Part shown: positions 2,928-58,900 of the stretch, one piece after another
How positions within the stretch are numbered: position 1 is the first letter of the stretch
Layout: the number at the start of each line of letters is the position of its first letter
From: Mustelus asterias
Lineage: Eukaryota
Direction of reading: 5' to 3'
NCBI RefSeq assembly: GCF_964213995.1
Contig: NW_027590128.1
Coordinates: 806,001-870,000 of the forward strand
Length of the DNA stretch: 64,000 nucleotides
Program-made: the position numbers and the translations under genes
Notes under the pieces: generated by a model
Databases searched by the model: none
What the model was told of the DNA's origin: nothing
Seen by the model: the letters and a program-made list of their open reading frames with translations, nothing else

Positions 2928-3355
2928 CAGAGTCGCTGAGCAGAAACTGATAGCCAAGTTTCGCACACATGAGGACGGCCTCAACCGGGATCTTGGGTTC
3001 ATGTCAGACTATCTGTAACCCCCACGACTTGCCTGGGCTTGCAAAATCTCACAAATTGTCCTGTCTGGAGACAATACACATCTCTAACCTGTGCTTAACG
3101 CTCCCTCCACTCGCATTGTCTGTACCTTTAAGACTTGATTACCTGTAAAGACTCGCATTCCAATCATTATTCTGTAAATTGAGTTTGTGTCTTTTTATGC
3201 CCTGTTTGTAATCAGAACTCCCACTCACCTGACGAAGGGGCAGCGCTCCGAAAGCTAGTGGCGTTTGCTACCAAATAAACCTGTTCGACCTTAACCTGGT
3301 GTTGTGAGACTTCTTACTGTTTTTACACCAGTCCAACGCCAGTATCTCCACATCA
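2928..3355 (+). mobile_element. Penelope-like element 3' fragment with terminal repeat (pLTR)
   Basis: Encodes RVAEQKLIAKFRTHEDGLNRDLGFM, matching the C-terminus of ORF 37480-38463; followed by a terminal repeat like 38464-38801. Confidence 0.85.
3226..3260 (+). ncRNA. Minimal type I hammerhead ribozyme motif in PLE terminal repeat
   Basis: CAC-CTGACGA-A-GGGGC-AGC-GCTCC-GAAA-GCTA-GTG: stem I, CUGANGA core, stem II, GAAA, palindromic AGCT, UH site. Confidence 0.7.
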
Positions 3356-3414
3356 TGACATTTAAGGGGACAGTAAATTAATATAGGACAGATATAGGAC
3401 ACTGCGGGCGTGCG

Positions 3415-19889: not shown

Positions 19890-20390
19890 TGAGAATGATG
19901 TGATTATTTTTCAGACTTTTTAAACCACTTTCCACATTCAGCACATTGGAAACTCTCAGGTGTGTTTGTGTGTAGGTGCTTTTTCAGTCACACTGATGTT
20001 TGAAATCTTTGCCCGCAGACAGAATGAACATTTCTCCTTCTGGAGACAAAGGCTGACGATATTCAGTTTCTGATTAATCAAATCACTGAAACAGATCTTG
20101 ATGTGAAGTTTGGTTTGAGTTTCACATCTGTAAATCCTGCTTCATAATACCCTGCAAAAACAGTTTACAAATACCATCACTGTCAGTGCAGGATAGAAAT
20201 TCTGAACAGACAATTCATAGTTTCTCTGGAACATATTTTCCTCTCTTGTTCCCCCAAATCTATAAATCCCCGTCCCACACACTCTCCCTCCTCCCCTGGG
20301 CTGAAATCCAAACCCATCTCACCATCTCCACCATTTCTTCCCTCCACTCCCAGTTTTCTCCCTCCCTCTCCTCTGTCTGGGTTCAGTTCT

Positions 20391-20675
20391 TGATGTGGAA
20401 ATCTCACCAACTGTCCTGGCTGGAGACAATACATATCTCTTTAACCTGTGCTTAACCCTCTCTCCACTCACATTGTCTGTACCTTTAAGACTTGATTACC
20501 TGTAAAGACTCGCATTCCAACCATGATCTTGTAAATTGAGTTTGTGTCAATATATATGCCCCGTTTATGAACACAAGTCCCACTCACCTGACGAAGGAGC
20601 AGTGATCCGAAAGCGAGTGGCTTTTGCTACCAAATAAACCTGTTGGACTTTAACCTGGTGTTGTGAGACTTCTTA
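20391..20675 (+). mobile_element. PLE terminal-repeat insertion with 14-bp TSD
   Basis: TSD CTGGGTTCAGTTCT (20377-20390, 20676-20689); empty site in paralog at about 52628-52642; degenerate hammerhead at 20585-20619. Confidence 0.85.
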
Positions 20676-20849
20676 CTGGGTTCAGTTCTCCAGCTCCTGT
20701 CTGCAGACTGACAATAAAACCAATGGGTCTTATTGGGGGTGTTGGGGCCTCCAGAGGGTGTTTGTGAATCCTCCCCGCCCACCTCCCAGGGTTTCCTTCC
20801 TTCCCAGAGATCAGAGTCCTCATTGATTTGAGGCCAAAGTGTAACCTCT

Positions 20850-21980
20850 TATTTATTGTCCCCCTCCCCCATCCTCTGATGTGAACCATCCTCCAGTGGC
20901 TGAGCCAGGATGGGGCCGTTAACCTGGGCCTGTTCCCGGGAGGGAGGGAGGGAGAAGCCCCGCAGCTGCAAACCAGGGAGCTGACAATGATTCTGAAGGG
21001 TTTGCGGATCCACAAAGTGTTTCCAAATCCTCCCAGCCACCGCCTGACGCTGACTCCGCTACTCCGGGACAAACAAGCGCCAAGGACAGCACTGACACTG
21101 CGCATGCTCCACATCACAATGCCCGGGGACTGATTGACGGCAGCTCCGGACCAATAGGAAGAGGGGGCGGGGCTGGGGGACCGAGCGGGAGCGGCTGGTC
21201 CTCCAGCCAATCGGAGTGAATGAGGGGCGGGACCTGAAGCATGCGCAGTGCGGGTAATGGCGACGGACGGCCGGTTTTAGTTTGGAAGCGAGATCATTAC
21301 GAGGTAGAGGGCGGCGTGCGGGGAATGATAAATGTGGCGGGTGGGTGGAGAGACTTTGTAAACATGTTGTTCAACCCCAAACCCCGGAAATGAACTTCCC
21401 GGTCCCCCCCTTTGTACCAAATGGAGCGGCAGCTTGTAGTGTTAGACCCGGGCTGACTGCCGCCATTGAGGCTGCATGTGGGAGGCCGGCAGAGGTTGTG
21501 ATCGGAGAGTGAAGCCCTGACGTCACAATGGAATGAGTGAGGGTGTGACATCACAATGCAATGGGTGAGGGTGTGACGTCACAATGGACTGGGTGAGGGT
21601 GTGACGTCACGAGGGTGTGACGTCACAATGGAATGTGATCGGAGAGCAAAGTTTCACTCTGAAGCTCATTGGACAACTTCCGCATTGTGATGCCACGATA
21701 GAGCCCTACCTGAATCAGCCAATAGGAATCACTCTGCTCCGCGGTGACGTCTCTGGGTTCCAGTGAGCAGGCCCGGGCGCGCGGACCCAGGAGCCCCGCC
21801 CCCACCCATTGTTCCCCTCCCCCTGCACCACATCGAGCCAAGGTTTCCAGGCAACCGACTGGCGGCTCCGGCCAGAGCGAGAAGCCGCTCGGTGATCTCC
21901 CCCTCCCCCTGGCCCGGGACTGCAAAATGTCTAAGGGAGGGGGAAGCTGTGCATATGCGGGGGAGAACCCACCCTCTGAA
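20850..21980. promoter_or_regulatory. Bidirectional CpG promoter P3 between ZNF-4 (-) and ZNF-5 (+)
   Basis: Head-to-head genes; NRF1-like, CCAAT, GC-box, ETS-like (ACTTCCCGG), YY1-like (GCCGCCATT) motifs and a CRE array. Confidence 0.75.
21515..21634. repeat. 28-bp CRE minisatellite, about 4.5 units
   Basis: GAGGGTGTGACGTCACAATGGAATGGGT-like units; 4 perfect TGACGTCA. Confidence 0.85.
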
Positions 21981-24980: not shown

Positions 24981-26689
24981 ATCATTCTGTTTGGAACATC
25001 CCAAATGCCCATCCAATTTCCTTTTTAATTGTTTATTGTCTCCACTTCCTCCACCCCCGTAGGCAGCGAGTTTCAGGTCATTACCATTCACTACATCAGA
25101 ATATTCTTCCTCACATCTCTTCCCACACCCCCCCCCCCCGCCTCTTCAATCTCTGACCCAAAACAAGAAATCTGTGTCTCCCTCGTCCTTGTCCCTTCAG
25201 CTAATGGGAACAGCTTTTTTTTGTCCACCTTATCTAAACCTGTCAGAATCTTGTCCACCTCTATCAAATCTCCCCTCAACCACCTTTGCTCCAAGGAGAA
25301 CAACCCCAGCCTGACATTGACAATAAAGAACAAACTAACAGAATATGTTACTGTCTCAAATCAAATGGGAATGTTTAATTTCTATTTTAAAGATATTGTG
25401 AATATATTGTCCTGGACAATAAAGGAATTGGAATAACTCACCTTGGGTGTGGTTGAATGGAATATATCAATCTGGTATCCACCTACAGTCCAGTGAAAGT
25501 CTGGAATGTGTAGCTGGAAGTCCCTTCCTAACAGCACTGTGGGTGTACGTGCACCTCCGGCATTGCAGCAGTTCAAGAAGGCACCCTTGGGGTTGGGGTT
25601 GACCATGGCCAAGGCAGCTACATACAGCCACATATTCTGTTATAATTGAAGGACTGCAGATTGAATGTGAGGCATTGTGGGACTGGACTATCTTGACCAT
25701 ATTCCTGTGACTGCCCGGAAACTTGTGCCTATTTTAGTTTATAATTGAGGATTTCTGGGAATAAGTTAAATGTGGAAATATTAACCATAGCCTGGAGGAA
25801 TTTGGAATAACTGAGAATTTTATCCCCAGATAAAGAACAAAGATTTTGCCGGTGTTTGGGTGTAACGTGTTTGGGATTTTAAATCACCAAAGACAAGATG
25901 TTGCCTCTAAAATCAGTCCTTGTAAGTTGGCTTAAAAAAGGTTAAGTTATAATGAAGGATCTTGTATCTTATTTTAATCAAGGAGTTGTGAACTTGTAGT
26001 GCTCTGTCGCTTTAAGAAGCTATAGCTGCGAGAGAGAATGCTGAGGATTCATTGTTTGAAATTTATGAGCTGTGAGCATCTGTGTGTTTTGTTTGTTTTA
26101 TGTGGATGTTTGTCGATGTGTTTTATTATTGTTTTGGGCTACATTTGTTCAGGTTTATCTTTCTGGAGAATTAACCTTACCTTGAGTCTTTAATTAAAGG
26201 CATTTTTGGAAGTTTAAAAACAGGATCACAAGAACACTTAAGGAATTAATTTTGGTTCTTGTTGTTGTAAAGCACATGTTAACTTTCTCTGTTTGTGTGT
26301 GGATGATATTTGTGGGATGAACGCTTCACACTTTGAGGTTTTCTGTCTGTGATTTAAATCAAACAGATTTTTAAAAAAGGAAGTGTGATTAATAAAGCAT
26401 TTTTTGTTCAGAAGTTATGAACCTGGAGCCATATTTACTGGCCAGAGACAGGATTCCAGGATATTTTACTAAACATGTGGGAATTTTAATCCGGATACAA
26501 TTCACCCATGTGAGAATGAGAGTTTTAATTTGTAATGGTTATTTAAAATTTGATACATATGAAACGATTCTGACCAATCCTGTGTTGGATTGACCTTGGG
26601 TTAAACTTCCTGTCAGGTCCAAAGATTTATTCCTGACGCAAGTAACACAAAGAAAAGGAAAATTTTGGAATTGGATACTGAAGAAAAGC

Positions 26690-27447: not shown

Positions 27448-29631
27448 CATAGAACAGTACAGCACAGAACAGGCCCTTCGGCCCACGATGTTGTGCCGAG
27501 CTTTATCTAAACCAAGATCAAGCTATCCCACTCCCTATCATCCTGGTGTGCTCCATGTGCCTATCCAATAACCGCTTAAATGTTCCTAAAGTGTCTGACT
27601 CCACTATCACTGCAGGCAGCCCATTCCACACCCCAACCACTCTCTGCGTGAAGAACCTACCTCTGATATCCTTCCTGTATCTCCCACCACGAACCCTATA
27701 GTTATGCCCCCTTGTAATAGCTCTATCCACCCGAGGAAATAGTCTTTGAACGTTCGCTCTATCTATCCCCTTCATCATTTTATAAACCTCGATTAAGTCT
27801 CCCCTCAGCCTCCTCCGCTCCAGAGAGAACAGCCCTAGCTCCCTCAACCTTTCCTCATAAGACCTACCCTCCAAACCAGGCAGCATCCTGGTAAATCTCC
27901 TCTGCACTCCTTCCAGCGCTTCCACATCCTTCCTATAGTGAGGTGACCAGAACTGCACACAATATTCCAAATGTGGTCTCACCAAGGTCCTGTACAGTTG
28001 CAGCATAACCCCATGGCTCTTAAACTCCAACCCCCTGTTAATAAAAGCTAACACACTATAGGCCTTCTTCACAGCTCTATCCACTTGAGTGGCAACCTTC
28101 AGAGATCTGTGGATATGAACCCCAAGATCTCTCTGTTCCTCCACAGTCTTCAGAACCCTACCTTTGACCCTGTAATCCACATTTAAATTAGTCCTACCAA
28201 AATGAATCACCTCACATTTATCAGGGTTAAACTCCATTTGCCATTTTTCAGCCCAGCTTTGCATCCTATCTATGTCTCTTTGCAGCCTACAACAGCCCTC
28301 CACCTCATCCACTACTCCACCAATCTTGGTGTCATCAGCAAATTTACTGATCCACCCTTCAGCCCCCTCCTCTAAGTCATTAATAAAAATCACAAAGAGC
28401 AGAGGACCAAGCACTGATCCCTGCGGCACACCGCTCGCAACCTGCCTCCAATCCGAAAATTTTCCATCCACCACCACCCTCTGTCTTCGATCAGACAACC
28501 AGTTACCTATCCAATCGGCCAACTTTCCCTCTATCCCACACCTCACTTTCATCATAAGCCGACCATGGGGGACCTTATCAAACGCCTTACTAAAATCCAT
28601 GTATATGACATCAACTGCCCTACCTTCATCAACACACTTAGTTACCTCCTCAAAAAATTCAATCAAATTTGTGAGGCACGACTTGCCCTTCACGAATCCG
28701 TGCTGACTATCCCGGATTAATCCGCATCTTTCTAAATGGTCGTAAATCCCATCTCTAAGAACCTTTTTCATCAATTTACCAACCACCGAAGTAAGACTAA
28801 CCGGTCTATAATTACCAGGGTCATTTCTCTTCCCTTTCTTAAACAGAGGAACAACATTCGCCATTCTCCAGTCTTCTGGCACTATCCCCGTGGACAGCGA
28901 GGACCCAAAGATCAAAGCCAGAGGCTCTGCAATCTCATCCCTTGCCTCCCAAAGAATCCTAGGATATATTTCATCAGGCCCAGGGGACTTATCGACCTTC
29001 AGTTTATTCAAAACTGCCAGGACATCCTCCCTCAGAACATCTATTTCCTCCAGCCTATTAGCCTGTAACACCTTCTGTTCCTCAAAAACATGGCCCCTCT
29101 CCTTGGTGAACACTGAAGAAAAGTATTCATTCATCACCTCGCCTATCTCTACTGACTCCATACACAAGTTCCCACTACTGTACTTGACCGGCCCTAACCT
29201 CACCCTGGTCATTCTTTTATTCCTCACATAAGAGTAAAAAGCCTTGGGGTTTTCCTTGATCCGACCCACCAAGGACTTATCATGTCCCCTCCTAGCTCTC
29301 CTAAGCCCCTTTTTCAGCTCATTCCTTGCTAACTTGTAACCCTCAATCGAGCCATCTGAACCTTGTTTGCTCATCCCTACATAAGCTTCCCGCTTCCTTT
29401 TCACAAGACATTCCACCTCTTTCGTGAACCATGGTTCCCTCACTCGGCCATTTCCTCCCTGCCTGACAGGGACATACCTATCAAGGACACACAGTATTTG
29501 TTCCTTGAAAAAGTTCCACTTTTCATTAGTTCCTTTCTCTGACAGTTTCTGTTCCCAACTTATGCCCCCTAATTCTTGCCTAATCGCATCATAATTATCT
29601 CTCCCCCAATTGTAAACCTTGCCCTGCCGTA
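27448..29631 (-). mobile_element. Young 5'-truncated CR1 with uninterrupted 641-aa RT ORF (27518-29443)
   Basis: KSPGPD, NYRPVSLTS, YMDFSKAFDKV, SGVPQGSVLGP, FADD; intact C-terminus and 3' UTR; no endonuclease domain. Confidence 0.95.
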
Positions 29632-30189
29632 CAGTAATGCACTGTATTACCTGGTTAGAGAGACATGAAGAATGTGAGGAGGATTTTTATTGAGGCAGCG
29701 AGTGGTGACCTGGAAGTTAAAAATTGAACTCCAGAATGAGAAAAGAAATGGAAAGGGGGAGAAAAGAAAGTGTCGACCGATAATTGGTTCACATCAGTCA
29801 TTCAATGTTGAGACATCTTGAACAGGAGCCAATTCATTCCCTCCAGTCAAGGTTAACAAGTCCTTTCAGCTTTTTTTATTCTGTCAGCATGAGAAGGGAA
29901 CATCTTATAATTCCCACAGCATTTTAACCATTCTTAATGTGTTTACAATTCTAAACGTTATAAACTTGTGTTCAAATTTACATTTCCAGCCTTTATAACA
30001 TTTGTATTAATGAATCATTTATTATTTAATTGTCTCACAATTAATGCTGTCTATTTAACTAATCTGGCTGCTTTCCAATTGTGGGAACTTCAGGCCACAA
30101 AAAAGGTAGTTAGAGTCATAGAGGTTTACAGCATGGAAACAGGCCCTTCGGCTCAACTTGTCCATGCCGCCCAGTTTTAGTCCTAATTG

Positions 30190-34620: not shown

Positions 34621-34841
34621 ATCTTGGTTTTACACAATCTTGGTTTGCGTGATGGATTGGGCTACACTACGACCTTTTGTAGATCCTTGTGGTCTTGGGC
34701 AGAGCAGGAGCCATATCAAGCTGTGATACAACCAGAAAGAATGCTTTCTGTAAAAATTGGTCAGAGTCATATCTGAAATGCCACATTTCGAAGTCTCACA
34801 ACACCAGGTTAAAGTCCAACAGGTTTATTTGGTAGCAAATA

Positions 34842-34878
34842 CCATAAGCTTTCGGAGCACAGCTCCTTCGTCAGATGG
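34842..34878 (-). ncRNA. Hammerhead ribozyme motif in the inverted left pLTR
   Basis: Exact reverse complement of 38672-38708. Confidence 0.7.
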
Positions 34879-34994
34879 AGTGGATATCTGTTCTTCAACA
34901 GTGCACAGACACAGAAATCAAGTTGCAGAATACTAATTAGAATGCAAATCTCTACAGCCAGCCAGGTCTTAAAGGTACAGATAATGTGGGTGGA

Positions 34995-37900
34995 TAATGT
35001 TCTCAGCCGAGGGCTCAACTTTTGCCCCACTACCAAAATAGACCCCATCAGTCTCGCAGCAGACACAGAGGAATTCAGCAGGCGAATGAGGCTGCGGGAG
35101 TTCTTCCACAAACCCCAAGAGGTCAACACCGAACACAATGAGACAGCTAATGAACGGGATCAGCAGACAGAGAGACCAGCAGTGCTACCGAAGAGGAAAG
35201 AGTCGAATTGGACTCCTCCGGAAGGCCGCTGCCCTCGACTTGACATGTATGCCCAAGCTATCAGGAGGTGCGTCAACACCAAATTCATCAGCCGCACTCA
35301 CAAGACAGCACCGAACATCACCCAAGCACAACGCAACGCCATCCACGCTCTCAAGACCAACCGCAACATTGTCATCAAACCAGCAGACAAAGGAGGGGCC
35401 ATCGTCATACTGAACAGAACGGATTACTGCAAAGAAGTGTACCGACAACTGAACAACGAGAAACACTACAGACAGTTACCCACAGATCCGACCAAAGAAC
35501 ACACCCGTCAACTCAACACTCTGATCAAAACCTTTGATCCGGACCTTCAGAGCACCCTCCGTGCTCTCATCCCACGTACTCCACGCGTTGGAGATCTCTA
35601 CTGCCTTCCAAAAATACACAAGGCAAACACACCCGGCCGTCCCATCGTTTCAGGAAATGGAACCCTGTCCGAGAACCTCTCCGGCTATGTCGAGGGCATC
35701 TTGAAACCCATTGTACAAAGAACCCCCAGCTTTTGTCGCGACACTACGGACTTCCTACAGAAACTCAACACACATGGAGCAGTTGAACCAGGAGCACTCC
35801 TCGTCACAATGGATGTCTCGGCACTCTACACCAGCATCCCCCACGATGATGGCATTGCTGCAACGGCCTCAGTACTCAATGCCGTCAACTGCCAGTTTCC
35901 AGATGCAATTTTACAACTCATCTGTTTCATCCTGGACCTCAATATCTTCACCTTCAACAATCAGTTCTTCATCCAGACACACGGAACAGCCATGGGGACC
36001 AAATTCGCACCTCAATATGCCAACATCTTCATAAGAACATAAGAACATAAGAAATAGGAGCAGGAGTAGGCCATCTAGCCCCTCGAGCCTGCCCCGCCAT
36101 TCAATAAGATCATGGCTGATCTGACGTGGATCAGTACCACTTACCCGCCTGATCCCCATAACCCTTAATACCCTTACCGATCAGGAATCCATCCATCCGC
36201 GCTTTAAACATATTCAGCGAGGTAGCCTCCACCACCTCAGTGGGCAGAGAATTCCAGAGATTCACCACCCTCTGGGAGAAGAAGTTCCTCCTCAACTCTG
36301 TCTTAAACCAACCCCCCTTTATTTTGAGGCTGTGTCCTCTAGTTTTAACTTCCTTACTAAGTGGAAAGAATCTCTCCGCCTCCACCCTATCCAGCCCCCG
36401 CATTATCTTATAAGTCTCCATAAGATCCCCCCTCATCCTTCTAAACTCCAACGAGTACAAACCCAATCTCCTCAGCCTCTCCTCATAATCCAAACCCCTC
36501 ATCTCCGGTATCAACCTGGTGAACCTTCTCTGCACTCCCTCCAATGCCAATATATCCTTCCTCATATAAGGGGACCAATACTGCACACAGTATTCCAGCT
36601 GCGGCCTCACCAATGCCCTGTACAGGTGCATCAAGACATCCCTGCTTTTATATTCTATCCCCCTCGCAATATAGGCCAACATCCCATTTGCCTTCTTGAT
36701 CACCTGTTGTACCTGCAGACTGGGCTTTTGCGTCTCATGCACAAGGACCCCCAGGTCCCTTTGCACGGTAGCATGTTTTAATTTGTTTCCATTGAGATAG
36801 TAATCCCATTTGTTATTATTTCCTCCAAAGTGTATAACCTCGCATTTGTCAACGTTATACTCCATTTGCCATATCCTCGCCCACTCACTCAGCCTGTCCA
36901 AATCTCTCTGCAGATCTTCTCCGTCCTCCACACGATTCACTTTTCCACTTATCTTTGTGTCGTCTGCAAACTTCGTTACCCTACACTCCGTCCCCTCCTC
37001 CAGATCATCTATATAAATGGTAAACAGTTGCGGCCCGAGTACCGATCCCTGCGGCACGCCACTAGTTACCTTCCTCCAACCGGAAAAACACCCATTTATT
37101 CCGACTCTTTGCTTCCTGTCGGATAGCCAGTCCCCAATCCACTTTAACACACTACCCCCAACTCCGTGTGCCCTAATCTTCTTCAGCAGCCTTTTATGGG
37201 GCACCTTATCAAACGCCTTTTGGAAATCCAAAAACACCGCATCCACCGGTTCTCCTCCATCAACCGCCCTCGTCACATCTTCATAAAAATCCAACATGTT
37301 CGTCAAGCACGACTTTCATGCACAGGTTCGAACAAGACTTCTTCACCGCACAGGACCTTCAACTGATGCTATACACTAGATAAATCGATGACATTTTCTT
37401 CCTTTGGAGTCATGGTGAGCAATCACTGAAACAATTATATGATGACATCAACAAGTTCCATCCCACCATCAGACTCACCATGGACTACTCTCCGGAATCG
37501 GTTGCATTCTTGGACACACGCATCTCCATTAAGGACAGTCACCTCAGCACCTCACTGCACCGCAAGCCCACGGATAACCTCATGATGCTCCACTTCTCCA
37601 GCTTCCACCCTAAACACGTAAAAGAAGTCATCCCCTACGGACAAGCCCTCCGAATACACAGGATCTGCTCGGATGAGGAGGATCGCAACAGACACCTCCA
37701 GACACTGAAAGATGCCCTCATAAGAACAGGATATGGCGCTCGACTCATCGGTCAACAGTTCCGACGCGCCACAGCGAAAAACCGCACCGACCTCCTCAGA
37801 AGACAAACACGGGACACAGTGGACAGAGTACCCTTCGTCGTCCAGTACTTCCCCGGAGCGGAGAAGCTACGGCATCTCCTCCGGAGCCTTCAACATGTCA

Positions 37901-38463
37901 TTGATGAAGACGAACATCTCACCAAGGCCATCCCCACACCCCCACTTCTTGCCTTCAAACAACCACGCAACCTCAAACAGACCATTGTCCGCAGCAAACT
38001 ACCCAGCCTTCAGGAGAACAGTGACCACGACACCACACAACCCTGCCACAGCAACCTCTGCAAGACGTGCCGGATCATCGACACGGATGCCATCATCTCA
38101 CGTGAGAACACCATCTACCAGGTACACGGTACCTACTCTTGCAACTCGGCCAACGCTGTCTACCTGATACGCTGCAGGAAAGGATGTCCCAAGGCATGGT
38201 ACATTGGGGAAACCATGCAGACGCTACGACAACGGATGAATGAACACCGCTCGACAATCACCAGGCAAAACTGTTCTCTTCCTGTGGGGGAGCACTTCAG
38301 CAGTCACGGGCATTCAGCCTTGGATCTTCAGGTAAGCGTTCTCCAAGGCGGCCTTCACGACACACGACAGCGCAGAGTCGCTGAGCAGAAACTGATAGCC
38401 AAGTTCCGCACACATGAGGACGGCCTAAACCGGGATGTTGGATTTATGTCACATTATCAGTAA
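34995..38463 (+). pseudogene. PLE polyprotein, split by CR1 and with YIDD mutated to *IDD
   Basis: YANIF (36030) joins MHRFEQDF (37318); TAA at 37381-37383 precedes IDD, in frame with ORF 37480-38463. Confidence 0.88.
36033..37314 (-). mobile_element. Young CR1 inserted antisense into the PLE RT
   Basis: 391-aa RT ORF 36131-37306; (TTCTTATG)n tail; 5-bp TSD TTCAT (36028-36032, 37315-37319). Confidence 0.93.
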
Positions 38464-38671
38464 CCCCCACAACTTGCCTCCTGGGCTTGTAGAATCTCAC
38501 TAGCTGTTCTGTCTGGAGACAATACACATCTCTTTAACCTGTGTTGAATGCTCCCTCCACCCACATTATCTGTACCTTTAAGACCTGGCTGGCTGTAGAG
38601 ATTTGCATTCTAATTAGTATTCTGTAACTTGATTTCTGTGTCTGTGCACTGTTGGAGAACAGATATCCACT

Positions 38672-38708
38672 CCATCTGACGAAGGAGCTGTGCTCCGAAA
38701 GCTTATGG
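38672..38708 (+). ncRNA. Minimal hammerhead ribozyme motif in the right pLTR
   Basis: CCAT-CTGACGA-A-GGAGC-TGT-GCTCC-GAAA-GCTT-ATGG. Confidence 0.72.
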
Positions 38709-38933
38709 TATTTGCTACCAAATAAACCTGTTGGACTTTAACCTGGTGTTCTGAGACTTCTTACTGTGTTTACCCCAGTCCAACGCCGGCATCTCCACAT
38801 CATGCCACATTTCCTCAGTCTTCTGAGAAAGTAGAGGCATTTGTGGGCTTTCTTAACTATAGTGTCAGCATTGGGGGACCAGGACAGATTGTTGGTGATC
38901 TGGACACCTAAAAACTTGAAGGTCTTGACCCTT

Positions 38934-44658: not shown

Positions 44659-44733
44659 AGATGCCGCTTTTAAAAACTGCTTCAATTGAAGCTAAAATGT
44701 AACCAAATGACTTCAACCAAGCACAGCATGTCA

Positions 44734-44772
44734 ATACTACACTGGATCTTAGCCAAAAGGCCGAGAAGCGAT
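44734..44772 (-). pseudogene. RNU2: U2 snRNA 5' fragment (nt 1-39)
   Basis: Reverse complement ATCGCTTCTCGGCCTTTTGGCTAAGATCCAGTGTAGTAT matches vertebrate U2 nt 1-39 at 38/39 positions, including the GTAGTA branch-point recognition sequence. Confidence 0.9.
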
Positions 44773-45400: not shown

Positions 45401-46019
45401 TTTAGTCAGTCATATGGGCATATATCTGTCTGGCAGCCTGCATGGAGATTTTCAGCTCTCGGCAGGAAGCCGTGAGCACGGATCTGTCAATCAGCCTCAA
45501 TCAGCACCTTGAGGAGAATTGGGAGGGTGAATATTAGATACAGCAGAGTGAGAATGGAGGGAGAGTGTGTGGGATGGAGATTTACAGCTTTTGGGGATTG
45601 AGAGAGAAAGAATGTTTCATAGAAACTGGAATTGTCTGTTCTGAATTTCGATCCTGTACTGACACTGATGACTTGTGTCAACTTGTTTTACAGGATATTG
45701 AAAGAGGAATCACAGGCTAAAATCTCGAACGTCACGTCTAGATCTGACAGAGACATATTCCTTGGGACCTGAATATCATCGGCCATTGAATCTGGAAGAT
45801 TTGAAAAGATTTCAAACATCAATCTGACTGAAAAAGCACCAACACACTTCCACATTCAAGTGAGAGTGTTCCAGTGCACTGATTGAAGAGCTTTAACCAG
45901 TTACACAGCCTGAATAAATATCACACCATTCACAGCGGGGAGAGACTGTACACTGTTGTGTGTGTGGATGAGGCTTCAGCTGATTGTCCACCCAAGGGAG
46001 AGGCAAGGACACCTGCACC

Positions 46020-46861
46020 ATGGAGAAACCATGGAAATGTGCGGACTGTGGAAAGAGATACAGAGCACCATGTCGGCTGGATGCTCATCGGCGCAACCAC
46101 ACTGGGGAGAGGCCATTCATTTGCTCTCAATGTGGGGAGGGATTCATTCGGTTCCCCCACCTGCAGTCACACAAGCGAATTCACACTGGCGAGAGACCGT
46201 TCACCTGCTCTCAGTGTGGAAAGGGATTCACTGTGTCATCCACTTTGCAGAGACACCAGCGAATTCACACTGGGGAGAGGCCGTTCACCTGCCCTCAGTG
46301 TGGGAAGGGATTCAACCAGTTATCCAATCTATGGACACACCAGCGAATTCACACTGGGGAGAGGCCATTCATCTGCTCTCAGTGTGGGAAGGGATTCACT
46401 CGGTCATCTGACCTGCAGACACACCAGCGAGTTCACACTGGGGAGAGGCCATTCACCTGCTCTCAGTGTGGAAAGGGATTCACTGTGTCATCCGCCTTGC
46501 AGAGACACCAGCGAGTTCACACTGGGGAGAGGCCATTCACCTGCTCTCAGTGTGGGAAGAGATTCACTCAGTCATCCGTCCTGCGGACACATCAGCGCAT
46601 TCACAGCGGGGAGAGGCCGTTCACCTGCTCTCAGTGTGGGAAGGGTTTCAGTCAGTTATCCAACCTGCGGAGACACCAGCGAGTTCACACTGGGGAGAAA
46701 CCGTTCACCTGCTCTCAGTGTGGGAAGGAATTCACTCAGTGATCCCACCTGTTGAGACATCAGTGAGGTTACACTGGGGAGAAACCGTTCACCTGCTGAG
46801 TGTATAAAAAGGGTTCAGAATTTCATCCCAGCTGCTGAGACACCAACAAGTTCACGAGTGA
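46020..46861 (+). pseudogene. Tandem C2H2 ZNF (ZNF-8): 8 intact fingers, then premature TGA (46740-46742); may encode a truncated protein
   Basis: ORF 45984-46742; decayed fingers 9-10 end at the ancestral CACGAGTGA. Confidence 0.75.
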
Positions 46862-47649
46862 TTCCAGGGGTTGGATTCTGCTGTTATTGTTTCTGCTCTC
46901 AATTACATCCAGGACTGCATTTTGTTCATTCTCACAGTTGGTCAATGGGGAGGGTCGGAGGGTTTCTTTCTGCTGGACTGACCGGTCTCATGACTTTGCC
47001 TCCAGTGGGCTGATGCTCTTCGAGTCTTGTTGTGAATACCTGGTTTCAAATTTCACAAGGATCACAGAGTGACAGGGTGTGAGGAAGTTAAGAGTTACTA
47101 TTTCTGTTTGAAACTTCCCAAATGCTCATCCAATTTCCTTTGTAATTGTTTATTGTCTCCACTTCCTCCACCCTCGTAGGCAGCGAGTTCCAGGTCATTA
47201 CCATTCACTGCATCAAAATATTCTTCCTCACATCCGCCCCTGCATCTCTGACCCAAACCATAAATCTGTGTCCCCCCTCATCCTTGTCCCATCAACTAAT
47301 GGGAACAGCTTTTCTTTGTCCACCTTATCTAAACCTGTCAGAATCTTGTCCACCTCTATCAAATCTCCCCTCAACCTCCTTTGCTCCAAGAGGAACAACC
47401 CCAGCCTGACATTGACAATAAAGAACAAACTAACAGAATATGTTAATACCTGAAATCAAATGGGAATGTTTAAATTCTGTTTTAAAGATATTGTGAATAT
47501 ATTGTCCTGGACAATAAAGGAATTGGAATAACTCACCTTGGGTGTGGTTGAATGGAATATATCAATCTGGAATCCACCTTCAGTCCAGTGAAAGTCTGGA
47601 ATGTGTAGCTGGAAATCTTTCCCTAATATCACTGTGGATGTACTTACAC

Positions 47650-47923
47650 GATGTGGAGATGCTGGCGTTCGACTGGGGTAAACACAGTAAGAAGTCTCAC
47701 AACATCAAGTTAAAGTCCAACAGGTTTATTTAGTAGCAAACGCCACTTGCTTTCGGAGCGCTGCTCCTTCGTCAGGTGAATGGGAGATCTGATCACAAAA
47801 CAGGATTTTTTATGATCAGAACTCCCACTCACCTGACGAAGGAGCAGCGCTCCGAAAGCTAGTGGCGTTTGCTACCAAATAAGCCTGTTGGACTTTAACC
47901 TGGTGTTGTGAGACTTCTTACTG
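47650..47923. mobile_element. Fold-back PLE-derived mini-element with two opposed hammerhead motifs
   Basis: Arms 47683-47800 and 47808-47925 are near-perfect reverse complements; TSD TGTACTTACAC (47639-47649, 47924-47934); empty site at about 25544-25554. Confidence 0.88.
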
Positions 47924-48309
47924 TGTACTTACACCTCAGGCATTGTAGCAGTTCAGGAAGGCAGTGTTGGGGTTAACCATGTCTGAGGCAGCTACATACA
48001 GCCACATATTCTGTTATAATTGAAGGACAGCAGATTGAATGTGAGGCATTATGGGACTGGACTATCTTGACCACATTCCTGTGACTGCTCAGTTTCTGCA
48101 ATCACGGACCATTAAAGCTGCTTAGCAGGGCCCCAACAGAGGACCTGGTGAGAATATTTACTCAGAATGAGTTAGAATTAATCTTATTCCAGCACCGCTG
48201 GTGTTCAGCGGCTGAGATACCCGAATCTGTGAACAGGAGGTCTGGCCAATCAACAAACAGTGGTAGATAGTTGGTTAAGAAGTTAAAGATATTGGTCAAC
48301 ACCTCAGTA

Positions 48310-48878
48310 TGAAGATCAGAGGGTGGGCTCTCCCCAGCACATGTGCAGCTTCCCCTCTCCCCCGCACATGCGCAGTCCCGGGCCGGGGGGAGGGGGAGCT
48401 CACCGAGCGGCTTCTCGCTCTGTCCGGAGCCGTCAGCCGGTTGCCTGGAAACCTTGGCTCGATGTGGTGTAGGGGGAGGGGAACAATGGTGGGGGGCGGG
48501 TCTCCCGGGTCCGTGCCCCGAGCCTGCGATTGGAACCCGGAGACGTCACCGCGGAGCAGAGTGATTCCTATTGGCTGATTCAGGCAGGGCTCCATTGTGA
48601 CATCACAATGTGGAAGTTGACCAATGAGCTTCAGAGTGAAACTTCCTCCTCTGTACAACACCTGGGAGGAAATCAATGTTTCCCCCTTTCCATTTCTCTT
48701 CTCATTCTGGGGGAAATTGGGGACTTGCAGCAACTGAAGGGAAAGGAAGTGAATCCAGTCTGTATATTCCACACATTTCTACTCCAGTAATGTAGACATT
48801 TATCTGTCTGGCAGCCTGCATGGAAATTTTCAGCTCTCTGCATCCAGGGCAGAAGCAGTGAGCATGGATCTGTCAATC
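48310..48878 (+). promoter_or_regulatory. Orphan copy of the ZNF promoter/first-exon module (P6)
   Basis: Highly similar to 44980-45490; no ZNF exon follows. Confidence 0.7.
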
Positions 48879-49268
48879 ACACATGAGGACGGCCTCAACC
48901 GGGATCTTGAGTTCATGACACACTATCTGTAACCCCCACAACTTGCCTAGGCTTGCAAAATCTCACTAACTGTCCTGGCTGGAGACAATACACATCTCTT
49001 TAACCTGTGCTTAACCCTCTCTCCACTCACATTGTCTGTACCTTTAAGACTTGATTACCTGTAAAGACTCGCATTGCAACCATTATCTTGTAAATTGAGT
49101 TTGTGTCTTTATATGCCCTGTTTGTGAACAGAACTCCCACTCCCCTGATGAAGGGGCAGCGCTCCGAAAGCTAGTGGCTTATGCTAACAAATTAACCTGT
49201 TGGATTTTAACCTGGTGTTGTGAGATTATTTACTGTGCTTACCCCAGTCCAACGCCGGCATCTCCACA
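48878..49268 (+). mobile_element. PLE 3' fragment with pLTR and hammerhead motif (49142-49176)
   Basis: THEDGLNRD-coding end plus terminal repeat; CTGATGA-A-GGGGC-AGC-GCTCC-GAAA-GCTA. Confidence 0.85.
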
Positions 49269-49699
49269 CTCTGAGTGGAAACAGAGAGAAGTAGGAGAGG
49301 CCGGAGGTGAGGAGAGAGATTTTATACATCTGCAACTCAACAGGAACTTTGACAAAATTTCCAAACCCTGTGAACACCATCAGCTCCAAGTTCCTCTCCA
49401 ACCCACACACCATCCTGACTTGTCTGACATCCAGTACTGAAAGAACAGAAATTTATTTCATATAAATACTGGGAAGACTGAACCCATTGTGTTCAGTCCC
49501 CACTACAAACTCCACTCCCTCGCCAACAACTTTATCTCTCCTCCTGGCAACTGTCTGAGGCTGAACCAGGCTGTTCACAACCAGGGTGAAATAGTTCATC
49601 CCAAGATGAGCTTCCAGCCACATGTCCACATCATCATCAAGACCACCTTCATTCATAGAAGCATTAATAGTAATTAATTAACAATAATGAATAATAAAA

Positions 49700-51790: not shown

Positions 51791-52470
51791 GGGCTTCACT
51801 CTCCGATCACAATCCCTGCCGGCCTCCCACATGCAGCCTCAATGGCGGCAGTCAGCCCGGGTCTAACACTACAAGCTGCCGCTCCATTTGGTACAAAGGG
51901 GAGGGACCGGGAAGTTCATTTCCGGGATTTGGGTTTGAACAACATGTTTACAAAGCCTCTCCACCCACCCGCCACATTTATCATTCCCCGCGCGCCGCCC
52001 CCTACCTCGTATTGCTCTCGCTTCCAAGTTAAAACCGTCCGTCTGTCGCCATTACCCGCACTGCGCATGCTTCAGGTCCCGCCCCTCATTCATTCCGATT
52101 GGTTGGAGGACCAGCCGCTCCCGCTCGGTCCACCAGCCCCGCTCCCTCTTCCTATTGGTCCGGAGCTGCCGTCAATCAGCCCCCGGGCATTGTGATGTGG
52201 AGCATGCGCAGTGTCATTGCTGTCCTTGGCGCTTGTTTGTCCCGGAGAAGCGGAGTCAGCGTTAGGCGGTGGCTGGGAGGATTTGGAAACACTTTGTGGA
52301 TCCGCAAACCCTTCAGAATCATTGTCAGCTCCCTGGTTTGCAGCTGCGGGGCTTCTCCCTCCCTCCCTCCCTCCCTCCCGGGAACAGGCCCAGGTTAACG
52401 GCCCCATCCTGGCTCAGCCACTGGAGGATGGTTCACATCAGAGGATGGGGGAGGGGGACAATAAATAAGA
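51790..52470 (+). promoter_or_regulatory. CpG promoter/first exon P7 of ZNF-9
   Basis: Inverted near-identical copy of 20850-21517; ETS-, NRF1-, YY1-like, CCAAT and GC boxes. Confidence 0.75.
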
Positions 52471-53211
52471 GGTTACACTTTGGCCTCAAATCAATGAGGA
52501 CTCTGATCTCTGGGAAGGAAGGAAACCCTGGGAGGTGGGCGGGGAGGATTCACAAACACCCGCTGGAGGCCCCAACACCCCCAGTAAGACCCATTGGTTT
52601 TATTGTCAGTCTACAGACAGCAGCTGGAGAACTGAACCCAGACAGAGGAGAGGGAGGGAGAAAACTGGGAGTGGAGGAAAGAAATGGTGAGATGGGTTTG
52701 GATTTCAGCCCAGGGAGGAGGGAGAGTGTGTGGGATGGGGATTTACTGATTTGGGGGAACAAGAAAGGAAAAAATGTTCCAGAGAAACTAGAATTGTCTG
52801 TTCAGAGTTTGTATCGTGTTCTGACAGTGATGACTTTTCTAAACTGTTTTTACAGGATATTGGAAGTGAAAGAATGGCAGTCGGAAAGCTCAAACCGGAC
52901 ATCACATCTGACAAAGTCATTCAGTTCCTTCGGAGCTGAATATCATTGGTCTTTGAATATAGAAAGAGAAATATTTGTCTGTTCTGCCTGTGGTCAAAGA
53001 AATTAAACATCAGTATGACCGGAAAAGCATCGAGACAAACACACCCGAGTGAGAGTGTTCCAGTGAACTGAATGTGGAAAGAGCTTTAACCAGTTACACA
53101 GCCTGAAAAAACATCACAGTTCACAGCAGGGTGAAACTACGTGTATGTTGTGTGTGTGGATGAGGCTTGAACTGATCATCCAACCTGGAGAAACACAAGG
53201 ACACCAGCCCC

Positions 53212-57750: not shown

Positions 57751-58367
57751 TGTTACACTCAGAGTAAGTCAGTGTTTGCTGTGTTGTCTCTGTGCTCCAT
57801 CCCCACTCTGATTGTATTGGAGCCTGTGTGTGTCATTGTTACACTCAGAGTAAGTCAGTGCTTTGCTGTGTTGTCTCTGTGCTCCATCCCCACTCTGATT
57901 GTATTGGAGTCTGTGTGTGTCATTGTTACACTCAGAGTAAGTCAGTGCTTTGCTGTGTTGTCTCTGTGCTCCATCCCCACTCTGATTGTATTGGAGTCTG
58001 TGTGTGTCATTGTTACACTCAGAGTAAGTCAGTGTTTGCTGTGTTGTCTCTGTGCTCCATCCCCACTCTGATTGTATTGGAGCCTGTGTGTGTCATTGTT
58101 ACACTCAGAGTAAGTCAGTGCTTTGCTGTGTTGTCTCTGTGCTCCATCCCCACTCTGATTGTATTGGAGTCTGTGTGTGTCATTGTTACACTCAGAGTAA
58201 GTCAGTGCTTTGCTGTGTTGTCTCTGTGCTCCATCCCCACTCTGATTGTATTGGAGTCTGTGTGTGTCATTGTTACACTCAGAGTAAGTCAGTGCTTTGC
58301 TGTGTTGTCTCTGTGCTCCATCCCCACTCTGATTGTATTGGAGCCTGTGTGTGTCATTGTTACACTG
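57751..58367. repeat. 86/87-bp tandem repeat, 7 units
   Basis: Units start at 57751, 57837, 57924, 58011, 58097, 58184, 58271 (partial at 58358). Confidence 0.95.
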
Positions 58368-58374
58368 AGATTCT

Positions 58375-58900
58375 GTCACTGTGATTATTGGACAAGCAGC
58401 AAGTCACCGTCACAATGCCCGGCTGATTGACGGCAGCGTGGACCAATGGGAAGAGGGGGCAGTGCTGGAGGACCGACCTGGAGCGGTCGGTCATCGAACC
58501 AATAGGAGCGAATGAGGGGCGGGGCCAGCTTTGACTCGAGCATGCGCAGTGTGAGTAATGGCAATGGAAAGCGGCTTTTGTTTTGGGCTCGGAAATCTGT
58601 TAGAGGTGATTGGCGGTACGGAGAGAGCAATGGATCGTCCAGGTTGGTGGAAACGCTGCGTAAGCATGTTGTGTAAGCCGCAAACCGCGGAAGAGAGCTT
58701 CCCGGACCCAGTTTGTACCGAGCAGGGCTGCAGCTCCTCATGTTCGTCCCGGGTTAACGTTCGCCATCTTTATTGGGGGCAATATACAGCAGTGCGCATG
58801 TGCGGCCGCCATGTTTGTAGAGGGCAATATTGTCTATCATTGGGAGGAGCTTGTTCCCCATTGTTCAGAATGGAGACAACTTGTCCATCAAACTGTATCA
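58375..58900. promoter_or_regulatory. ZNF promoter module P8 (upstream of ZNF-10)
   Basis: CCAAT pair, GC box, GCATGCGCA, two CGCCAT (YY1-like); paralogous to 62360-62855. Confidence 0.65.

Follow-up and report, generated by a model that had tools for sequence, protein, structure and literature searches.

A fold-back pair of Penelope terminal repeats in a shark zinc-finger gene cluster, probably the product of one integration event

Introduction

When a short insert consists of little more than two opposed copies of one retroelement repeat, each with a hammerhead ribozyme motif, it may be asked whether it is a mobile unit in its own right or what is left of a single integration. The question is raised here by a locus in Mustelus asterias, within a 64,000-nt stretch of contig NW_027590128.1 (the whole stretch is called the window below). 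A first-pass annotation of this DNA offered two origins for the insert. One of them, a one-off, 5′-truncated and inverted insertion of a Penelope-like element (PLE), fits all of the tests described below. The other, a hairpin or retrozyme-like family, is without support, because the unit is not tandem, none of the differences between its arms is compensatory, its hammerheads are predicted to be unable to fold and, by analogy with the one PLE studied in vitro, the template sequence needed downstream of its tail is missing.

Insertions of PLEs are described as typically comprising inverted, 5′-truncated copies with a one-sided tail of 30–40 bp (PMC8557442). The layout reported for Penelope itself includes an inverted terminal repeat (pLTR), a 31-bp tail at one inverted pLTR, a target-site duplication (TSD) of 8–10 bp and palindromic inverted junctions, for which self-priming has been proposed (PMC3846280). 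Clustered C2H2 zinc-finger genes make up the window, with segments duplicated on both strands (one inverted duplicate, 20938-21413 and 51896-52371, runs for 476 nt at 96%), an 84-bp periodicity and many LINE-type reverse transcriptase (RT) fragments. One LINE-type RT frame on the minus strand (27518-29686, 722 aa) is uninterrupted; several zinc-finger copies end in fingers with stop codons, and a repetitive frame at 57768-58430, with no Pfam match, is apparently a minisatellite-like array.

Anatomy of the insert and its target site

The insert measures 274 bp between the two TSD copies (47650-47923). Its inverted arms, 47682-47800 and 47808-47926, are 119 nt each, 93% complementary (8 mismatches in 119 positions) and separated by a loop of 7 nt (47801-47807); the ~274 bp, ~118 bp and ~7 nt given by the first-pass annotation were thus close to the mark. 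The hairpin has a folding energy of −210.6 kcal/mol (z = −26.9), matched by none of 200 shuffled sequences, and a duplex of about 115 bp in the predicted fold. Among the open reading frames of at least 150 aa, none overlaps the insert, in keeping with the earlier statement that it has no ORF.

The insert is bounded by an exact direct repeat of 11 nt on the plus strand (47639-47649 and 47924-47934), the length that had been claimed. At a lag of 285, this is the only 11-mer that recurs among 63,000 positions of the window. Its significance was taken from anchored nulls (5/200,000 and 1/63,000); a looser null (609/20,000) was inflated by the zinc-finger repeats and by loose windows, and the anchored nulls were used in its place. 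The empty site reported in a paralogous segment of the zinc-finger cluster is indeed there: at 25544-25554 (plus strand) the target occurs unfilled and in a single copy, with 9 of the 11 TSD letters matching, and the flanks of the insert align to this segment with 21 differences over 350 positions and 12 over 155.

Each arm had been described as a Penelope terminal repeat. Both arms are indeed pLTRs, but the symmetry that this implied does not hold, because the left arm extends 32 nt past the paired region (47650-47681, minus strand). These 32 nt are the PLE tail; they align to the extreme 3′ ends of three further copies of the pLTR within the window (3200-3356, 38657-38803 and 49117-49268), and the right arm has no such tail. 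Since the tail is on the left arm only, the sense of the element lies along the minus strand, with the right arm as the tail-less inverted partner. Along this strand one copy of the TSD is followed by the tail-less inverted pLTR, a short joint, the pLTR with its tail and the other TSD copy. The tail-bearing arm runs from 47682 to 47804 (minus strand), its family homology reaching 47804 and its pairing stopping at 47800. The tail-less arm occupies 47808-47923 (plus strand), and its pairing extends 3 nt into the TSD. The loop would then be made up of 4 unpartnered nt of left-arm pLTR and, presumably, about 3 nt of filler. The insert is 87–90% identical to the 3′ repeat of the element at 34790-38803, and the 64-kb window holds no second copy of the fold-back.

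The hammerhead motifs

Both arms carry a motif of the minimal type I hammerhead. In the plus arm (47829-47865, plus strand) the core is complete in sequence, as the first-pass annotation had it, with C3 at 47833, U16.1 at 47860 and the cleavage position after 47861. Stem I has 4 bp, stem II has 5 bp with G10.1-C11.1, stem III with loop 3 is a palindromic 4-nt unit and an extra A follows position 9, features that match the list given in PMC4209133. The motif of the minus arm (47744-47779, minus strand) has the same core, with C3 at 47775, but is decayed, U16.1 being replaced by A at 47748; this is the mutation that had been noted before. Tested for U16.1 together with a palindromic stem III, this arm came out negative, and its dimer helix is put at −2.3 kcal/mol, against −4.5 kcal/mol. 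In one related sequencing run (X2), the letter at 47748 encodes U in 96% of the summed contig depth, so that the change at U16.1 is private decay. An Rfam scan of the window gave one match in total, a U2 fragment, and no hammerhead in either arm. The U2 snRNA fragment (44672-44772, minus strand) scores 42.9 bits, below the gathering score of 46; its first ~39 nt alone match, and it is probably a pseudogene.

Folding predictions suggest that both hammerheads would be locked inside the hairpin in either transcript: at equilibrium, the predicted pair probability of stem II is about 1e-18, and on both strands the hammerhead fold is put at 49 kcal/mol less favourable than the hairpin. In a transcript of the plus strand the antisense arm is synthesised first, and in a transcript of the minus strand the sense motif is the mutated hammerhead. 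Lone minimal hammerheads are reported to be inactive and dimers to be weak (PMC4209133). As the two motifs lie on opposite strands, the cis dimer that minimal hammerheads need is not available. If the insert arose by integration as set out below, the hammerheads would very probably be passengers of the pLTR, and the insert inert, neither mobile nor self-cleaving.

Other PLE insertions in the window

The window contains five PLE insertions of the same or a sister family, the fold-back included. Three of the five have a TSD, and every one of these three pairs one tail-ended arm with one tail-less arm. The most complete is a near full-length element with RT and GIY-YIG frames (34790-38803, plus strand; 34778-38813 with its 12-bp TSD), whose 5′ end is a tail-less inverted arm of 205 nt and whose 3′ end is a tailed pLTR; its arms are 98.5% identical, which marks it as a young insertion. 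It belongs to a sister subfamily, being about 84% identical to the fold-back in the pLTR core, and a LINE-type RT fragment on the minus strand (frame 36131-37315) interrupts its RT region. The DKG and RT motifs of its frames were recognised by eye, and homologues of the frames carry RVT_1 or GIY-YIG domains; the GIY-YIG match itself (E 3.5e-4, 21.2 bits) falls just below the Pfam cut-off of 22.6 bits. The closest named relatives of the PLE protein are uncharacterised shark proteins, up to 96% identical, and searches of PDB sequences with two PLE frames gave nothing useful.

The third TSD-bounded insertion is a stub (20391-20674, plus strand; 20377-20688 with its 14-bp TSD) with an empty paralogous site at 52628-52641. 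It consists of a tail-less arm of about 280 nt, and its opposite end is the last 9 nt of the tail, inverted; it is easily taken for a plain truncated copy. Its hammerhead is likewise altered at U16.1. Expressed as tail arm and tail-less arm, the lengths are thus about 155 and 116 nt in the fold-back, the whole body and 205 nt in the near full-length element, and 9 and about 280 nt in the stub, and the TSD varies with them (11, 12 and 14 bp, respectively). The remaining two copies, 2928-3356 and 48878-49268, are tail-ended; exact and 2-mismatch searches found neither a TSD nor an inverted arm, and they were perhaps joined by microhomology or rearranged later.

The fold-back is the case in which both arms are short and nearly equal. 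Because the two other TSD-bounded insertions share its layout with different arm lengths, it is most likely an extreme outcome of ordinary PLE integration.

Related sequence in other species

A query comprising one arm, the loop and 28 nt of the other arm was compared with the contigs (not raw reads) of four related sequencing runs, out of 24 listed, which come from other species; the search turned up no run of the same species, and the best run shares 0.51 of the 126 words. Among the loose ends listed, one cluster falls at 47650 (368, 223, 1222 and 40 contigs in the four runs) and a second at 47683-47686, with flanks that are unrelated (agreement 0.33–0.42). From the contigs, these clusters appear to be two families of 3′ ends, 33–36 nt apart, and they match the two tail-bracketing RT start sites seen in vitro (PMC11167929). 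Hundreds of contigs depart from the arm at 47731 and continue, upstream of the hammerhead complement, as a shorter variant, which is a sister pLTR subfamily, and an opposite-strand joint at 47731/47779, present in 23 contigs, is likely to come from that subfamily's own fold-backs.

The loop itself is sparsely covered. Its summed depth, which is not a copy number, is 0.007–0.6% of that of the adjacent arm bin, though nonzero in the related runs (62–913). Past 47799, the consensus of the loose ends listed is ordinary pLTR and not the fold-back loop in 3 of the 3 DNA-like runs. Among the 32 pieces listed, beside which there are 100,844 further pieces, 870 loose ends and 8 joints, no contig bridges the loop; such a contig would align straight through and not appear as a joint. 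The low depth speaks weakly against this loop belonging to a large family, and nothing firm about its uniqueness follows. Seven of the 15 joints listed are opposite-strand, at several positions, and some of them reflect alignment ends or a sister subfamily; in one contig of run X6 the sense arm starts a few bases from the fold-back turn (joint 47698 to 47809), so that there may be a preferred turn point.

A 100-nt contig of run X2 (depth 247; 47559-47658) consists of flank followed by 9 nt of tail, and thus falls short of the 31 letters that the comparison requires. It may hint, faintly, that the site is filled in a related species, perhaps in several duplicated segments. An exact 34-nt pLTR motif had 0 matches in each of three further collections, namely metagenome, prokaryote-genome and viral contigs.

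A single integration as the probable origin

We consider, with a probability of roughly 0.85, that the insert is a single integration of an endonuclease-bearing PLE, shortened at its 5′ end and later decayed. The order of the molecular steps is what we infer from this anatomy. The GIY-YIG nuclease would make a staggered cut of 11 nt, from which the TSD would derive, and reverse transcription of uncleaved PLE RNA would start at two sites that bracket the tail. The outer start site, at the tail end of the left arm, would yield the tail-bearing arm, and the other copy would end at the inner site, giving the tail-less arm. Synthesis of both copies would halt some 30 nt upstream of the hammerhead core, and their ends would be joined in head-to-head fashion, about 3 nt of filler lying between them, after which the insert would decay neutrally. 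That the template was uncleaved is indicated by the arms themselves, which run through the hammerhead cleavage position. In vitro, the PLE protein of Anolis is reported to cut and extend both target strands and to use uncleaved RNA; reverse transcription begins at two internal sites bracketing the tail, and RNA beyond the start sites is required (PMC11167929).

How the second arm was primed is a separate matter. Priming at the second nick accounts for all three TSD-bounded insertions, and we lean slightly towards it. Snap-back of the first cDNA, to which we give somewhat less credence, best accounts for the loop-side ends of the two arms lying within 4 nt of each other; it resembles the self-priming that has been put forward for inverted junctions with palindromes (PMC3846280). 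This same closeness counts against the overall scheme, since two independently stopped cDNAs are unlikely to end no more than 4 nt apart unless the template ended there or snap-back took place. The two PLE copies of the window that have neither TSD nor inverted arm also count against it, as does the GIY-YIG match just under its cut-off. An RNA end defined by a promoter was considered but not adopted: sister copies do have a TATA-like stretch immediately upstream of the turn, but a start 25–30 nt further on would fall inside the arms.

The later history of the insert looks neutral. None of the eight differences between the arms (six mismatches and two G-U pairs) is compensatory, the arms have diverged by 6.7% (2.9–12.8), like the paralogous flanks (6.5%), and the left arm with 6 changes against 2 in the right shows no significant excess (p = 0.29).

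Alternative explanations

The alternative that survives best is that integrations recurrently abort at one turn point, so that look-alike hairpins with different fillers would arise independently, as by-products that do not replicate. The turn point could be the RNA 5′ end or a snap-back site, as the close arm ends would allow, and the opposite-strand joints, with the X6 contig that starts its sense arm near the turn, are in its favour. The other two TSD-bounded insertions of the window turn at quite different points, however, and the joints listed are spread over several positions, some having the other sources named above. We think it unlikely, at perhaps one chance in a few; it is a refinement of the single-integration origin and concerns the same kind of element.

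A self-propagating, non-autonomous fold-back family would require the hairpin unit to be transcribed and re-inserted in trans by the PLE protein, with its loop kept. The insert does retain the 3′ part of the pLTR and a tail with both start sites, pLTRs are reported to be able to mobilise unrelated sequence in trans (PMC3846280), and the loop is present at some depth in the related runs. Against this stand the single copy in the window and, in those other species, the ordinary pLTR consensus past 47799 and the small loop fraction. The RNA of the unit would moreover be a hairpin of −234 kcal/mol and, by analogy with the Anolis element, the unit is missing ORF sequence that this element requires in vitro past its start sites, downstream of the tail (PMC11167929). 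With pairing that shows no compensatory change, such a family is distinctly improbable.

Nor is it at all probable that the host has kept the insert as a hairpin within a zinc-finger gene's 3′ region, to supply siRNA against PLEs or to regulate the mRNA. The insert does lie about 0.9 kb behind a plus-strand C2H2 frame (45984-46742), it folds into the long duplex described above, and siRNAs matching Penelope inverted repeats are known in Drosophila (PMC3681739); and yet two AATAAA signals (47417 and 47513) precede it, stop codons occur in the last fingers of the neighbouring zinc-finger frame, the insert is absent from the paralogous segment and the pairing shows no sign of selection. A MITE or Foldback-type DNA transposon, or a non-LTR retrozyme, scarcely merits consideration in spite of the inverted arms, TSD, hammerhead motifs and missing ORF, being already contradicted by the asymmetry of the tail and the lack of tandem units (there are 0 tandem arrays in 47000-49500, and the motifs are on opposite strands); the arms are, besides, a retroelement pLTR, and the TSD length of the family is not fixed.

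Possible function and significance

With no compensatory change and an arm divergence equal to that of the paralogous flanks, no function is indicated and the decay looks neutral, as far as can be judged from the sequence. If the insert were transcribed, a role as a source of dsRNA or small RNA against PLEs, as the first-pass annotation had proposed, would be plausible given the Drosophila precedent (PMC3681739), and hairpins of this kind could feed small-RNA silencing. That this insert actually has a self-propagating or silencing role is nevertheless improbable. The same low credence applies to a broader conjecture, in which shark PLEs would prime from both nicks at the two start sites that bracket the tail, and a preferred stop close to the present turn would seed many hammerhead-bearing hairpins, some of them re-mobilised as units, which together would be a dsRNA or siRNA source that limits the parent.

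A single decayed insertion carries little weight, and this one is a real but ordinary product of PLE integration. What it offers is one clean observation on how such integration comes to leave inverted arms and a tail on one side. All three TSD-bounded insertions have this layout, with unrelated arm lengths, and they suggest a simple rule of one arm per nick and one per start site.

Comparison with known systems

The pattern of an inverted pLTR with a tail, and that of hammerhead pairs on opposite strands, are already known in print; a title-level literature search, which cannot speak to absence from print, returned no relevant title on non-autonomous inverted elements of shark PLEs or on PLE twin priming. 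By its features the insert falls with the endonuclease-bearing (EN+) PLE insertions: it is built from the pLTR of an element with an RT and, at the C terminus, a GIY-YIG domain, and has a 32-nt one-sided tail, a head-to-head, inverted and 5′-truncated copy and an 11-bp TSD with an empty site. Insertions such as Pen2a_Av (PMC3846280, PMC8557442) are described with the same head-to-head pLTRs, one-sided tail, short TSD and palindromic junction. In contrast to these, the body of the shark insert is only the last ~155 nt, so that the arms meet directly and no ORF remains.

In Schistosoma, pairs of minimal hammerheads on opposite strands, about 100–700 bp apart, were described in 2014, with truncated PLEs given as their source (PMC4209133). 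They share with the shark motifs the opposite strands, the closeness, the extra base after position 9, G10.1-C11.1 and the palindromic stem III, whereas the shark cores are 58 nt apart, stem II has 5 bp and one motif lacks U16.1. The Poseidon element of Anolis carolinensis, PAc, is likened to the insert by its two RT starts bracketing the tail and its uncleaved-RNA template, but it is an active element of full length, examined in vitro, and the main text of that study gives no account of inverted arms (PMC11167929). Finally, non-LTR retrozymes are likewise short, non-coding and pLTR-derived, with a type I hammerhead; they are described as repeats arranged head to tail, each unit with its own hammerhead, that cleave and circularise (bioRxiv 10.64898/2026.07.22.740005), whereas the shark insert is a single head-to-head pair with its hammerheads on opposite strands.
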